Origin: Escherichia phage Eryne | Sequence record: PQ529420 | Length of the DNA: 64,000 nucleotides | Direction: 5' to 3' (one strand) | Shown here: positions 43,976 to 57,037 of the stretch, piece after piece | Numbering within the stretch: the stretch's first letter is position 1 | How the letters are laid out: each line of letters starts with the position of its first letter | The notes under the pieces: model-generated | The model's input: the letters and a program-made list of their open reading frames with translations, nothing else | Told to the model about the DNA's origin: nothing | Database searches by the model: none | Position numbers and translations under genes: made by a program

Positions 43976-44189
43976 TATTTTGAAAATTTTTATTTTTATA
44001 AAAAGGGGTGTGGGTTTCATGTACGGAAATTCACCCTCTGCACAGTATATCCAGAGTAAGTAGTATTCTACACCCTGTTAATAAAGTATTTAATTTGTTT
44101 GTTGGACTATGGTATCTGATCTTTAAAAGACATACTATCTCTTAACTACTACTTATAACAGAACAGTAAAATCATTTTTATAAAAAGTA

Positions 44190-44396
44190 CAAAATTATTT
44201 AAAGTTTTTACAGATTTTTGGGTACAAATTTTGAAAATGAAAAGTTCAAGTTTGGTCAAAATTATTTAAAGTTTTTGTACGTATTTCTGTCCAGATTTTG
44301 AAAATGAAAACTTCAATTTTTTAAAAATTCCCCAGTTTATTTAAAGTTTTTTTGCCTTTTTCCGTAGAAAAATCAAAAATGAAAAGTTCAATTTCG
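44190..44396. repeat. three tandem ~68 bp direct repeats (iteron-like)
   Basis: Each unit: ATTTAAAGTTTTT ... TTTTGAAAATGAAAAGTTCAA, with internal TTGAA-N9-TTCAA inverted repeat. Confidence 0.6.
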
Positions 44397-44403
44397 TGTT
44401 TTT

Positions 44404-44475
44404 ATAGGTATGCGTATGATAATCATTCTCATTTGTAAATGAGAATCATTAGCAAATGAGAATTTTTCTCATTTA
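44404..44475. promoter_or_regulatory. operator-like palindrome cluster (Fur-box-like)
   Basis: TATGATAATCATTCTCATTT-gt-AAATGAGAATCATT inverted repeat plus two further AAATGAGAAT copies. Confidence 0.5.
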
Positions 44476-44700
44476 GAGAATAACGCGCAGGGGTGGTGTT
44501 TGTCTCGCGCTCCCGTGTCCCCTCGCCATACAATAAGAATAGCATAACCAACAACAAAAGCAAGCGATTATTTCTATCTTTACATTTCTTTACAAATTTA
44601 TTTTAGACGAGCTACCGGCGATCAACCTTCCAACCAGTAGTGCCCTGGTATGTTAGCCCCGCCTTTACGCCGTGGGGGTGGCGTTTCCTCTTCTGTATGT

Positions 44701-44729
44701 AAAACAGTATAAGCCCGATCCCTGGGCTT
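44701..44729 (-). terminator. rho-independent terminator
   Basis: AAGCCCAGGGATCGGGCTT hairpin followed by T-rich tract on minus strand. Confidence 0.5.
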
Positions 44730-44736
44730 GTCAAGA

Positions 44737-45003
44737 TTATTTTTTGTTTTCTTGCCAGGATAGGACACCTAACCAAAAATACATGTCGCCCCGCGCCCCT
44801 GGCGGGATCTTGCTTTCCCCGCCGCCACTGCAAGCCCATAGATAACCATTTGCGAACGTATCAAAATGATCTATTTCTTCCACCTTATGATCGCCCAGGT
44901 CGAGAACGGTTTCAACCTTTAAGCCCGTTGCGCTTGCTACCTGGTGCACCGTGCCGCCTTGCCAGCCCAATGAGTGCATGAGGTGTAAAGTAGTATTTGT
45001 CAT
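44737..45003 (-). CDS. hypothetical protein in GC-rich islet
   Basis: 88 aa; GAAAGGG SD, downstream terminator; local GC content far above rest of window. Confidence 0.5.
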   Translation of the reverse strand: MTNTTLHLMHSLGWQGGTVHQVASATGLKVETVLDLGDHKVEEIDHFDTFANGYLWACSGGGESKIPPGARGDMYFWLGVLSWQENKK

Positions 45004-45113
45004 GGTATCGCCCTTTCTTTGATGTGCGCCCTGGTTGGCGCGGTAGAAAGATAATAGCCCTTTCCTTTATAGATAGCAAGCAAAAAAGAAATGAAAAAAA
45101 GATTAAAAAAATG

Positions 45114-45142
45114 GTTGACGTTCCTCACCTGGTAGCGTATTA
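45114..45142 (+). promoter_or_regulatory. sigma70-like promoter
   Basis: TTGACG, 17 bp spacer, TATTAT. Confidence 0.45.
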
Positions 45143-45271
45143 TTCATCTTGTCGAGGGGGGGCGAGGCACAACGACAATAAACAAAAGGAGGGCGCAATG
45201 TAGGACGGGCAAAGGTGAGGATCTCCATAATCCACCGTCACAATAACATTACTTATAAAAGGTTGATAACG

Positions 45272-45367
45272 ATGATCAAGAAAGAAAACAGCTTGACGGT
45301 TGGAACGATTAACGCTATCATTCTAGCCGTTCCATTTTGGGTTGTAGTAGCGGTTATTATCTTTTAA
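45272..45367 (+). CDS. small hydrophobic peptide (untracked, approximate)
   Basis: ~31 aa MIKKENSLTVGTINAIILAVPFWVVVAVIIF. Confidence 0.3.
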   Translation: MIKKENSLTVGTINAIILAVPFWVVVAVIIF

Positions 45368-45375
45368 AAATATTC

Positions 45376-45433
45376 TTGACAACGTTTTTTAATCTGATAA
45401 GATGTATCACATAGGGCGGCAATAGTGCCGCTC
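45376..45433 (+). promoter_or_regulatory. early promoter with 5' stem-loop
   Basis: TTGACA, 16 bp spacer, extended -10 TGaTAAGAT, hairpin GGGCGGCA-ATAG-TGCCGCTC at transcript start. Confidence 0.55.
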
Positions 45434-45455
45434 ATAACAGAAGAGAGAAATAATC

Positions 45456-45728
45456 ATGGCATCATATAGCGCATCAATGATCGTAACGGGCATCACTGGT
45501 AAACCTATGCGCGGTGGCGGATCTTTCGCTAACATAAATATTGATGGACGTTTATCCCTGGATGCAGCGATCACCGTGGCACGGGAAACATTTAAAAAAG
45601 AATGTAATTTCAATAAACAAGATTATCTCGGTTTCGCTATTGAAAAAACCGCGCGATTTGTGGATTATAAAAGCCCGAAAATGATCGACACTACACTAAA
45701 AGCGCAAGATGTAGCGTTTTTGCTTTAA
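45456..45728 (+). CDS. hypothetical early protein
   Basis: 90 aa ORF after promoter/hairpin. Confidence 0.55.
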   Translation: MASYSASMIVTGITGKPMRGGGSFANINIDGRLSLDAAITVARETFKKECNFNKQDYLGFAIEKTARFVDYKSPKMIDTTLKAQDVAFLL

Positions 45729-54552: not shown

Positions 54553-54571
54553 TTGATATAGGAATCATACC

Positions 54572-54805
54572 ATGATCGAACAAATTAAAAGCACTACACC
54601 AAATGTTAACGGCAATGTTTCACACTTTATCAGTGATAATGAAAGGGGCACACCATACGCCGCCGTAACCGTGCAACCTAATGGCGATTATTGGTTTACC
54701 GTGTACGGATCATACTCTTTCGGACGCCCGGTACATGATAAGATCTTGCAAGCGGTTAAACCTGCGGGGAAGAATATCACAGCAGAAAAATTTTATAAAA
54801 AATAG
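54572..54805 (+). CDS. hypothetical early protein
   Basis: 77 aa ORF. Confidence 0.55.
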   Translation: MIEQIKSTTPNVNGNVSHFISDNERGTPYAAVTVQPNGDYWFTVYGSYSFGRPVHDKILQAVKPAGKNITAEKFYKK

Positions 54806-54880
54806 CTTGCTTTATTTCTTCTGTTAACTTATAGTTATCGCGTAGGGCAAACAATTTTAAACGGTAAACGAGGAATCACC

Positions 54881-55264
54881 ATGAGCAATATCATCAACCT
54901 GGCAGCGACTGTAAACGGTAAAGACTTTAACGGCGCTGTAGACCGTGATCCTATGTGGTGCTTATCAGTGTTTAAAGGCGATCTGGTTGAAGTTAGAACA
55001 ACCGAAGGGTATAGCGATGATTATAAATGCGAGATCCATTTACACAACTGGTACACGGGTAAAACTTATGCGCTGAATCATGCGTTTATCGGCAAGGTTG
55101 AATATAGAGAAATGATCGACGAAGAAACGGGGCAAGATTTTAGCGAGCATGTTTATATTCGTTCCGAGACATTAGCCGAACGTTTGATCGAGAAAATGAA
55201 AGCAAAAAATAAAATTAATTTAACTCATTGGATTGATATAACAAACGATCCTGCTTATCAGTAA
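54881..55264 (+). CDS. hypothetical early protein
   Basis: 127 aa; SD GAGGAA. Confidence 0.55.
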   Translation: MSNIINLAATVNGKDFNGAVDRDPMWCLSVFKGDLVEVRTTEGYSDDYKCEIHLHNWYTGKTYALNHAFIGKVEYREMIDEETGQDFSEHVYIRSETLAERLIEKMKAKNKINLTHWIDITNDPAYQ

Positions 55265-55280
55265 ATAACATTTCATACCA

Positions 55281-55305
55281 GGGCGCACAAAGCGCCCTTT
55301 CTTTT
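55281..55305 (+). terminator. rho-independent terminator
   Basis: GGGCGC-ACAAA-GCGCCC hairpin plus TTTCTTTTT. Confidence 0.65.
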
Positions 55306-55511
55306 TACCTAAATAAAGATGATAGCTTTTACCTATCAAGAACGTTCACCGAAAAAAGTGAATAGATCGCGGTATCGAGCTAATCAAGGAGCAGATGAAC
55401 AACCATACCATGAAGATCATAAGGCGCTTACAGCGTGTTTTAGACCGCTTATTTTTAATTTCTTCATGCAACTATCTGGCAAAAACAGCCTTTTTCTCAT
55501 CTTTCCTCTTA

Positions 55512-55582
55512 AATGATAATCATTCTTATTTATAGCTGATTATTTATGCAATAAACTGCATAATGCAATAATGACAATCATT
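55512..55582. promoter_or_regulatory. two Fur-box-like palindromes
   Basis: AATGATAATCATT (perfect 13-bp palindrome, identical to E. coli Fur box core) and AATGACAATCATT, both followed by CTTA. Confidence 0.45.
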
Positions 55583-55599
55583 CTTAACTTAAGACCATC

Positions 55600-56450
55600 T
55601 AACTTATAAAATAATAAGTTATCTAACTAAATTAAAGCTAATTATCTTACTTTTATTTATAACATACTGTTACTATCTTATTGATAACCTTATATTAAAC
55701 AACAATAATCAATGTAAATCATTACTAAGCTAACTATAATCTATCTAACCCTTAAAACTATAACTATAATCTATCGAATTGTTGCACAAAGTAACTATTA
55801 AATTGTTAGTAACATTGCTAAATAATTAATATCCTATCTATTTATGATCTAATCTTTACCTTCCTATTTATCACCTAACTAATCATTTCATACAGTAATC
55901 ATTCCATATAGTAATCATTTCATACAATAACTATAACAAGAAATATAATTCGCAAGCGTATCATTAGCAGCCTATGCCGGACACATAGGCGGCTAATAAT
56001 AACGCAACTACACACCCCACATAATAACCATCACCGATAGTTATTATTTGTGTTTATGTAGCTTGCAACAATTGCAAGCGCAACAATATACATGGTATAT
56101 TGTATCCCTTACATTGTTGCGGTGCGTTATTATTAGCTAATGTTTAGAACATTGGCTATAATATAAGCTAAATAATAAGCTATACAATAATAAACATCGT
56201 GAATAATGATGCTGATGATCATAATGCGCCACCTTCCAGGGGGGCGCTATGTGAACACAAAGAAATCTTTCTTGTCAAGAAAAATATTAACACTATTGCG
56301 CAAAATTATTTATAACTGAATAGATGATTTTTCATACTATTGCCCCTAATTACTTACTATTTGTTGCAATGTATTCCCCCTATTTGTTGAGCCTATTCTC
56401 TTAAAAGCGCAATAAATCAGAATTATCTTGATTTTTAGGTAGTTTTATAG
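55600..56450. repeat. AT-rich non-coding region with short tandem repeats and inverted repeats
   Basis: No ORF >60 aa; TAATCATTTCATACA x3, AACTATAATCTATC x2, palindromes GCTTGCAA-caa-TTGCAAGC and GCCTATG...CATAGGC. Confidence 0.6.
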
Positions 56451-56462
56451 TATAGAAAATAT

Positions 56463-56481
56463 GCAAATGATAATCATTATC
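56463..56481. promoter_or_regulatory. Fur-box-like site (17/19 match to GATAATGATAATCATTATC)
   Basis: gcaAATGATAATCATTATC read directly. Confidence 0.5.
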
Positions 56482-56647
56482 AGCTATCTTCCACGGGTGG
56501 CACTATTTCACGCCAGATCATTTCATTTGGCAAGGTGTATATAGATGTTTAGACTTGCCAAGTTATTGATTTACTTAGAATTTATCTGTTTTGTTGTGAG
56601 TAGTACCTTTCTTGCTCAGAAAATAATCAAAAGTCTTATAAGTCATT

Positions 56648-56680
56648 GAATGATAATGCAAATGATAATTATTCTCATTG
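56648..56680. promoter_or_regulatory. Fur-box-like hexamer array
   Basis: GAATGATAATgcaAATGATAATTATTCTCATTG; two AATGATAAT units. Confidence 0.45.
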
Positions 56681-57037
56681 ATATTTGAGGGGGACGGTCG
56701 GCAGAAATCGGGGGGCGCTGAAAATCGCGTTAAGCACCTCTCGCAAGCGAGCAGTATTTTGCGGCAAGTTATTGATATTATTGGCTTTACGCTTATGAAA
56801 AGGGGTGTGTCGAAATAAATCGGGTATACCGGAAAATTTTTGTGGCATAGATATTTATTTGTCTATATTATGTACAAAGGGGTGTGTTAAAAATATTAGG
56901 TATATATAGAATAATTGATAGGGAAATCCTATACTAATTCCTCTATTAATGATGTTTCTAGGTTGCTGTTCTTGTAATAGATGAAAAGACGCTATATGAT
57001 GTGTGGCATGAAACGTAAATTTATAAAGGAGTCTGAT

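Follow-up and report, generated by a model that had tools for sequence, protein, structure and literature searches.

A low-copy G-rich motif family in the non-coding DNA bracketing the early region and terminal repeat of Escherichia phage Eryne

The 64,000-nucleotide stretch of the Escherichia phage Eryne genome analyzed here (sequence record PQ529420; hereafter, the window) carries, in its non-coding DNA, several copies of a G-rich motif, AAAGGGGTGTG, for which the initial annotation had suggested a role as a phage-specific promoter class or a regulator site. The window is 95-98% identical to phi92-like coliphages, including Paula, VivaForever and EmilieFrey, and, judging from this similarity, comes from a phi92-like phage of the genus Justusliebigvirus, subfamily Stephanstirmvirinae. 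In the records of phi92 and UAB_1, a 343-bp direct terminal repeat (DTR) is annotated at both genome ends, and the DTR of phage BME3 is 342 bp according to PhageTerm (PMC12210895). Positions 1-556 of phi92 align to positions 56390-56942 of the window, and the right end of phi92 aligns up to position 56732; therefore, the window contains a single collapsed copy of the DTR (56390-56732, no strand, delineated by homology to the phi92 ends), and the physical genome ends lie within the span of the motif copies.

Immediately to the right of the DTR is the left end of the genome, where the first gene (ATG at 57038, ribosome-binding site AAGGAG at 57026) opens a block of small plus-strand genes homologous to phi92 gp001-036, all of which are on the plus strand as well. 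No strong sigma70-type promoter was found in the part of this block that is contained in the window (57-64 kb). Each small gene of the early region (45.1-54.5 kb) has its own near-consensus TTGACA-N16/17-TATAAT promoter, about 20 in total; the early region is preceded by a 1.4-kb non-coding region that follows a NADAR/YbiA-like gene (43424-43975).

The exact 11-mer AAAGGGGTGTG is present in the window three times, always on the plus strand, at 44002-44012, 56799-56809 and 56876-56886 (sites S1, S2 and S3, respectively), compared with an expectation of 0.04 copies in dinucleotide shuffles; none of the 100 shuffled sequences contained three copies, and a search of the window allowing one mismatch yielded no additional ones. 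The description given in the initial annotation is borne out by these data, with the position of S2 shifted by 1 nt (about 56798 there): all three sites are outside genes and border the early region, next to the block rich in sigma70 promoters; GGTATA, reported about 12 bp past two of the copies, starts at 56823, 13 nt past S2, and at 56899, 12 nt past S3; and the box itself matches no host sigma consensus. S1 is located 26 nt past the stop codon of the NADAR/YbiA-like gene, at the start of the 1.4-kb non-coding region, whereas S2 and S3 are 67 and 144 bp to the right of the DTR, that is, by the left genome end, 229 and 152 nt upstream of the first left-end gene. The orientation of S1, S2 and S3 is that of the plus-strand genes downstream. 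The 8-mer core GGGGTGTG occurs four times, including an inverted copy at 56011-56018 to the left of the DTR; in its 9-mer form, GGGGTGTGT, this fourth copy (S4) spans 56010-56018. All members of the family lie in two long stretches of non-coding DNA on either side of the early region and the terminal repeat.

The similarity between the copies extends beyond the 11-mer. The extended boxes are TTATAAAAAGGGGTGTGG at S1 (43996-44013), TTATGAAAAGGGGTGTGT at S2 (56793-56810) and TTATGTACAAAGGGGTGTGT at S3 (56868-56887), all on the plus strand, and TTATTATGTGGGGTGTGT on the minus strand at S4 (56010-56027, where the plus strand reads ACACACCCC at 56010-56018, 372 bp to the left of the DTR). S1 and S2 are identical in 16 of 18 positions (0.05 matches with three or fewer mismatches expected), and the DTR is flanked by an imperfect inverted repeat made up of S4 and S2, the 18-nt arms of which are 78% complementary. 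Furthermore, (T)GATATT is found 28-31 nt upstream of the G-run at S1, S2 and S3 (GATATT on the plus strand at 43974-43979, 56774-56779 and 56850-56855, respectively; 31 nt upstream at S1). Because of the extended match between S1 and S2 and the shared upstream GATATT, S1-S3 can be regarded as paralogous elements of about 45 nt rather than bare 11-mers, and the motif appears, from its sequence, to be a composite non-coding element that consists of (T)GATATT, a spacer of 11-16 nt, TTATR, an A-rich stretch of 0-5 nt and G3-6 TGTG(T).

For genome-wide enumeration, we used the complete genomes of the close relative A150 (146 kb) and of DIJ07P1 (143 kb), a member of the sister genus Phapecoctavirus. 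In A150, the 11-mer is present only at the orthologues of S1 and S3, with one extra G in S2, and the 8-mer GGGGTGTG occurs four times, at S1-S3 and at the inverted copy that corresponds to window positions 56011-56018; all four copies belong to the same two non-coding regions and sit within about 3 kb of non-coding DNA. This number does not exceed the first-order Markov expectation of 1.6 (P ~0.08); the chance that four random sites are all non-coding is about 3e-4. Exact and mismatch-tolerant enumeration in A150 and DIJ07P1 detected no further copies, and the k-mers enriched upstream of genes, namely terminator stems, Shine-Dalgarno sequences and TTGACA, include no related motif. The proposed promoter class, with a box-N12-GGTATA architecture that would be used genome-wide at middle or late times, is contradicted by this enumeration and must be considered very improbable: it fails the whole-genome test that the initial annotation itself had put forward because the complete relative holds only four copies, and no related motif is enriched upstream of genes. 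What speaks for such a class is the dissimilarity of the box to host sigma consensus sequences together with the GGTATA 12-13 nt past two copies, but the latter feature does not hold across the family. The first GGTATA belongs to a palindrome, GGTATACC (56823-56830, no strand), which is part of a Justusliebigvirus-specific insertion and is missing after S2 in Phapecoctavirus; at S3, GGTATATAT includes no TAnnnT hexamer at this spacing; and S1 has no GGTATA and is itself the arm of a hairpin. With its four copies, the motif thus probably acts locally, as a regulatory or structural signal, rather than as a promoter class used across the genome.

Comparison of the two genera reveals both conservation and drift. 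The core persists at three positions where the flanks are no longer alignable: the Phapecoctavirus sequences are ACAGGGTGTGTCGAAATAA or ACAGGGTGTCCCGAAATAA at S2, GGGGTGTCAAAAATAA at S3 and GGGGTGTAGTTG at S4. The S1 orthologue is only partly kept (ACAAAGGTGTCAC, retaining just AAAGGTGT), and the GATATT arrangement is repeated at S1', S2 and S3 of DIJ07P1. The extended box of S1 is invariant in nine Justusliebigvirus genomes, the identity within this genus being too high for conservation to be informative. The G-run varies in length from 3 to 6 among near-identical genomes (4-6 at S2 and 3-5 at S3 in relatives), and S3 and S4 read GGGGTGTGT in Justusliebigvirus as opposed to GGGGTGT in Phapecoctavirus. 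A G5...C5 hairpin takes the place of S2 in the phiWec179 lineage and also occurs in a compensatory variant, GAGGGTA...TACCCTC.

The most extensive conservation is associated with S3, which begins a block, GGGGTGT(GT)yAAAAATAwyvGGTATATATrGrATAATTGATAGG (56876-56923, plus strand), that is conserved in both genera and represents the best-conserved non-coding stretch of this region in Phapecoctavirus. Within the 55-bp block, the eight aligned genomes show no variation in GGTATATAT and ATAATTGATAGG; in BLAST comparisons, the block is 76-89% identical to phAPEC8, phiWec179 and ZCKP1, and the flanks no longer align. Scans of IMG/VR and metagenomes with the block retrieved six further true homologues, the other matches being due to chance; in an unrelated metagenome contig, the same string TATATGGGATAATTGATAGG constitutes the -10 region of a TTGACT-N17-GATAAT promoter.

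Weak sigma70-like candidate promoters directly follow both S2 and S3 on the plus strand: TCGAAA-N16-GAAAAT (56810-56837, 8 of 12 consensus positions; TCGAAA-N17-TATTTT in DIJ07P1) and TTAAAA-N17-AATAAT (56887-56915, 9 of 12), the latter of which puts S3 at about -46 to -36. In Phapecoctavirus, the sequence at S3 is TCAAAA-N17-GATAAT with a preceding TG (extended -10), where the -35-like hexamer is weaker. Another sigma70-like candidate, TTGTAA-N17-TATGAT (56972-57000, plus strand), is found just before the ribosome-binding site of the first gene; its hexamers and spacing recur in DIJ07P1 at 86414, in surroundings that are not conserved. No significant or conserved fold was detected at S2 and S3 in the window (z -0.45), and no promoter-like hexamers were detected downstream of S1 and S4.

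We tentatively favor the possibility that the motif is a duplex-DNA recognition box for a phage or host transcription factor, that is, an activator site or operator next to the weak left-end-operon promoters at S2 and S3. Under this scenario, a phage-encoded (or host) factor would recognize the box as duplex DNA, and the S2 and S3 boxes, located at about -46 to -36 and directly upstream of two tandem weak core promoters (TCGAAA-16-GAAAAT and TTAAAA-17-AATAAT) that point into the left-end block of small genes, would serve as class-II or MotA-type activator sites, or as operators, for a delayed left-end operon. We infer such protein binding, promoter activity and timing because the two boxes are upstream of weak promoters that face a block without a strong internal sigma70-type promoter in the window; the non-random occurrence of the motif, the position and orientation of S2 and S3, the conservation of the S3 block and the positions that the core and the adjacent hexamers retain in Phapecoctavirus, all of which are directly observed, are compatible with this role. 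Accordingly, the regulator-site suggestion of the initial annotation survives in part: it is plausible at S2 and S3, both of which face the left-end operon, with S3 opening the 55-bp block shared by the two genera. By contrast, S1 and S4 are not promoters: the former also supplies the 5' arm for a stable hairpin located where the preceding operon ends, and the latter is within a conserved structured element.

Several observations weigh against an activator or operator role. There are four copies only, and the two that are outside the S2-S3 region, S1 and S4, precede no promoter-like sequence. A rigid activator-polymerase geometry fits poorly because the G-run is 3-6 nt long and a GT indel moves the box by 2 bp between the genera. 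The S2 and S3 hexamers match only 8-9 of 12 consensus positions, and hexamer pairs of this quality are no more common than in shuffled sequence (33 found compared with 33.5 expected), although their positions are kept across the genera; moreover, the separate conserved candidate TTGTAA-17-TATGAT by the first gene could serve the operon alone. No regulator can be named: in a PHROGs scan of 27 early and 2 left-operon open reading frames (ORFs), 27 matched families of unknown function only and three matched none, and the first nine ORFs of the left operon have no Pfam match. A literature search for transcript mapping or transcription start site data on this phage group, and for the motif, returned nothing usable. 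For phage rV5, the predicted promoters comprise only sigma70-like sequences and a TggTAaAAtA motif, and no homologues of gp55, gp33 or gp45 were reported, with one Srd-like protein (PMC3606486). A more elaborate form of the transcription-factor reading, in which the G-rich box would be the site of an uncharacterized phi92/rV5-type factor that marks both DTR flanks and the border of the early region and switches on the left-end operon from non-canonical promoters, possibly in a manner coupled to end processing, appears quite unlikely; if true, it would mean that a large phage group, one without a known middle or late promoter logic, times its transcription by a system with no relation to T4 MotA/AsiA.

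Among known systems, activator-dependent promoters of the T4 MotA or class II type are the closest analogues of the arrangement, which fails the MotA comparison in box sequence, -10 spacing and copy number. T4 middle promoters combine a MotA box near -30 with a sigma70 -10 element and depend on sigma appropriation by MotA/AsiA; the number of MotA-dependent middle promoters in T4 is roughly 30 or more. The likeness consists in an upstream box of non-sigma70 type that adjoins an A/T-rich -10-like element, located downstream of a block of strong sigma70 early promoters and facing genes without a canonical -35. However, AAAGGGGTGTG, with its G3-6TGT core, lacks the TGCTT of the MotA box (a/t)(a/t)(a/t)TGCTT(t/c)A, and there is no TAnnnT 11-13 bp past the box, where GGTATATAT (S3) and GGTATACC (S2) are found instead; the first TAnnnT at S3, TAGAAT, is 20 nt past the box, and S1 has none. 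Furthermore, the complete 146-kb relative has only four copies, in two non-coding regions, and no MotA-like or AsiA-like families were found among the 27 early and 2 left-operon ORFs tested. As in class II activator sites or operators (for example, CRP at -41.5), the S2 and S3 boxes adjoin a weak -35-like hexamer at about -46 to -36, but the box, by inspection, has neither dyad symmetry nor a CRP, FNR or ArcA consensus, and its spacing is variable.

Several other sequence-based candidates were considered and rejected. CRP, FNR, ArcA, DnaA-box, Chi, dif and Hin/hix-type sites do not fit, as judged by eye against their consensus sequences. The mini-ORFs that start at the TTATG before the boxes (MKRGVSK, MYKGVC and MWGV) have frames broken by G-run indels in relatives. 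GGGGUG could pair with the 3' end of 16S rRNA as a Shine-Dalgarno mimic, but no start codon follows S2 or S3, and a 14-codon ORF after S1 is truncated in relatives. An SP6/T7-type promoter at S3 (ATTAGGT...TATAGAA) would have spacing 2 nt too short; no single-subunit RNA polymerase is annotated in positions 1-50 kb and the last 14.6 kb of the phi92 record. The 'late' motif of rV5, TggTAaAAtA, poorly matches AGGTATATAT, and the T7-type primase site GTGTC is present at S2 and in Phapecoctavirus but at none of S1, S3 and S4 here.

The S1 box forms the 5' arm of a predicted plus-strand hairpin, AGGGG(U)GUGGGUUUC - AUGUACG - GAAAUUCACCCUCU (44004-44039), with 14 bp and one bulge. The plus-strand RNA has a folding energy of -16.4 kcal/mol (z -2.7), whereas that of the minus strand is only -8.4 kcal/mol (z -0.8), the minus-strand hairpin being weak because three G.U pairs become A.C mismatches. 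A T-to-C substitution at 44031 in phages muut and ALITA converts a G.U pair of the hairpin to G-C. Apart from this change and a one-base deletion in the A-run of muut, nine genomes are identical over the 65 nt that extend from the stop codon to the end of the hairpin; the adjacent 35 nt are variable. The hairpin is not a canonical terminator because no U-tract follows on the plus strand, which reads GCACAG there. A U-tract follows on the minus strand, where the hairpin is weak, and the site is absent from the terminator scan, so that S1 was rejected as an intrinsic terminator.

S4 is embedded in a 175-nt multi-helix element (55960-56140, minus strand) about 250 bp to the left of the terminal repeat. 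The single-sequence fold of this element reaches -83.4 kcal/mol on the minus strand (z -8.8) and -63.5 kcal/mol on the plus strand (z -6.6). An 11-sequence alignment that includes both genera supports 53 pairs, with all 580 cells paired (100%), eight pairs with compensatory double changes, none broken and several invariant G.U pairs; in slid controls, no more than 52% of the cells are paired. The GUGUAGU of S4 pairs with GCUACAU in helix 3, whereas its G-run is unpaired. No match to an Rfam covariance model at the gathering score was obtained in the window, the two non-coding regions producing only chance-level hits (E >= 0.24), and neither a tRNA nor a known RNA family was found. Either a structured non-coding RNA, with the minus strand favored, or a signal in single-stranded DNA (for example, an origin or a site of priming) could account for the element.

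These structures are the basis of a different, somewhat doubtful explanation, under which the box has no common protein partner and functions as a helix strand in single-stranded nucleic acid: in the gp217-223 operon, S1 would stabilize the 3' end or act in the manner of a terminator; S4 would belong to a structured element, either RNA or single-strand DNA, close to the right end of the genome; and S2 and S3 would be alike by ancestry or local duplication. At S1 and S4, a structural role is well supported. The S1 hairpin, with its strand-specific G.U pairs, strengthening substitution and invariant block abutting variable DNA, the pairing of S4 within an element supported by eight compensatory pairs and the hairpin that takes the place of S2 in the phiWec179 lineage all fit this explanation. 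It is harder to reconcile with the lack of a stable or conserved fold at S2 and S3 in the window, the unpaired G-run of S4 and the missing plus-strand U-tract after the S1 hairpin, and a hairpin role leaves the common upstream GATATT and TTATR boxes unexplained. Rather unlikely, in turn, is the absence of any present function, in which case S2 and S3 would be a 77-bp tandem duplication that predates both genera, and S1 and S4 would be low-complexity look-alikes, composed of an A-run, a G-run and a GT-run, or decayed promoter/stem-loop cassettes, kept mainly by recent ancestry. The unexceptional genome-wide count of the 8-mer (four compared with 1.6 expected, P ~0.08), the drift in the lengths of the G-run and the GT repeat, the reduction of the Phapecoctavirus S1 orthologue to AAAGGTGT, the loss of S2 in the phiWec179 lineage and the uninformative identity within Justusliebigvirus are all compatible with decay; against it stand the survival of the core at three positions amid unalignable flanks, the 16/18 match between S1 and S2, the GATATT at the same distance from three sites in both genera and the non-coding location of every copy.

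The proximity of three copies to the genome ends raises the question of a packaging or replication signal, in which S2 and S3 (direct) and S4 (inverted) would be the repeats recognized by the small terminase or by another protein that acts in end processing or replication; we consider this unlikely. S4, S2 and S3 flank the DTR (372 bp to the left, and 67 and 144 bp to the right), with similar distances in Phapecoctavirus (83 and 141 bp), the 18-nt imperfect inverted repeat of S4 and S2 spans the DTR, and a match to the integration host factor (IHF) consensus, CAAGTTATTGATA, is located between the DTR edge and S2. In this respect, the arrangement resembles the R sites of lambda cosB and the SRL and SRR arrays of T7, that is, short repeats 70-400 bp from terminase cut sites, here on both sides of the DTR. 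A comparable case might be Vequintavirus LL12 (MH491969, 105426-105510), where about eight GACAC/GACAT repeats with 10-11 bp spacing lie flush with a 459-bp DTR. Unlike the lambda and T7 arrays, however, the family has only two copies on one side and one on the other, and the well-matched S1, the copy closest to S2 in sequence, lies at a distance of 12.4 kb from the end; Phapecoctavirus lacks the IHF match; and cleavage is likely signaled by another motif, GTTR^AGC, which is present at both DTR boundaries in both genera. With all these alternatives taken into account, the transcription-factor site at S2 and S3 is the reading that we retain, tentatively; the motif family itself is real, undescribed and low in copy number, its function being uncertain, and other features of the same non-coding DNA look more informative than the family.

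Phi92/rV5-type myoviruses are widely used in therapy cocktails and are represented in the BASEL collection, and we found no mapped promoters or defined temporal switch for these phages in the literature. If the box is a regulator site, it would provide a handle on how the small uncharacterized genes of the left-end operon are switched on, and the position of the regulatory DNA with respect to the true genome ends is then fixed as well. If it is merely structural or a decayed repeat, the practical value is smaller, and the result shows that the promoter-class reading fails; in that case, the conserved structured element, the Fur-box-like repeats and the cut-site motif of the DTR, all in the same non-coding region, would be better leads.

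The cut-site motif comes from the similarity of the two DTR boundaries (56383-56400 and 56726-56745), which read GTTG followed by AGCCTATTCTCTT on the left and GTTA followed by AGCACCTCTCGC on the right, with the phi92-implied cuts after GTTR; the equivalent pair in DIJ07P1 is GTTGAGCACCTTCTCTTAAACG and GTTAAGCACTTCTTACG. Judging from these sequences, GTTR^AGC is likely to be the terminase cleavage and recognition motif. In LL12, the repeat array (GTGTC on the other strand) precedes a region rich in inverted repeats. The DTR also shares short repeats with the DNA to its right: AGGTGTATATAGA (56533-56545, inside the DTR) pairs with AGGTATATATAGA (56898-56910), and CAAGTTATTGAT occurs twice, at 56559-56570 inside the DTR and at 56765-56776 in the S2-S3 region, where at least this copy, read with the next base as CAAGTTATTGATA, fits the IHF core consensus YAANNNNTTGATW.

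A separate repeat family, AATGATAATCATTCTCATT, is represented by at least five sites compared with 0.04 expected (44415-44475, 55512-55530, 55569-55590, 56463-56484 and 56661-56679); two copies are within the DTR and a palindromic cluster is in the other non-coding region, and the family is kept in Phapecoctavirus. One of the repeats, at 56463-56481, agrees with the Fur-box consensus of E. coli, GATAATGATAATCATTATC, in 17 of 19 positions, which suggests possible iron- or Fur-linked control, or Fur titration.

The non-coding DNA past S1 contains additional conserved features. After the S1 hairpin, at 44041-44090, there are overlapping alternative hairpins, CTCTG-loop-CAGAG and CAGAGTA-loop-TACTCTG, followed by a T-rich stretch; their stems are conserved and their loops are variable across the nine genomes, and this arrangement looks, at the sequence level, like an attenuator. 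Three direct repeats of 67-75 bp (AAAATTATTTAAAGTTTTT...GAAAATGAAAAGTTCAA) occupy A/T-rich non-coding DNA at 44174-44394 and have equivalents in Phapecoctavirus; the repeats are iteron-like and therefore may mark an origin region. On the minus strand, a near-consensus TTGACA-N17-TATACT (44706-44734) directly past the minus-strand gp224 homologue (44737-45003) is aimed left into about 700 nt of non-coding DNA and overlaps a hairpin classed as a terminator in the scan; this candidate promoter may be the source of an antisense or non-coding transcript with its end near S1.

About 10 nt past most of the approximately 20 early promoters (45100-54550), there is a conserved G-rich stem-loop arm of the CATAGGGCGGGA type, and these units of an early promoter and a 5' stem-loop appear to be cassettes like the promoter-early stem-loop (PeSL) cassettes of T4-type phages; some of the stem-loops are apparently annotated as minus-strand terminators in the Paula record. 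The G-rich motif is not a PeSL cassette: S1 resembles one in that an A/T-rich -10-like TATAAA precedes its hairpin arm, which is G-rich and on the 5' side, but the S elements have no consensus -35 and -10 at a workable spacing (TTGAAA-N11-TATAAA at S1), and a stem-loop is missing from S2 and S3. At the left genome end, the gene content just past the S3 block differs among phi92, UAB_1, Paula and the window, and the first two left-end genes of the window (57038-57397 and 57538-57912) are paralogous, both matching phrog_2510 and sharing the motifs PLSS..L..FYKAW and QFTCAGL.

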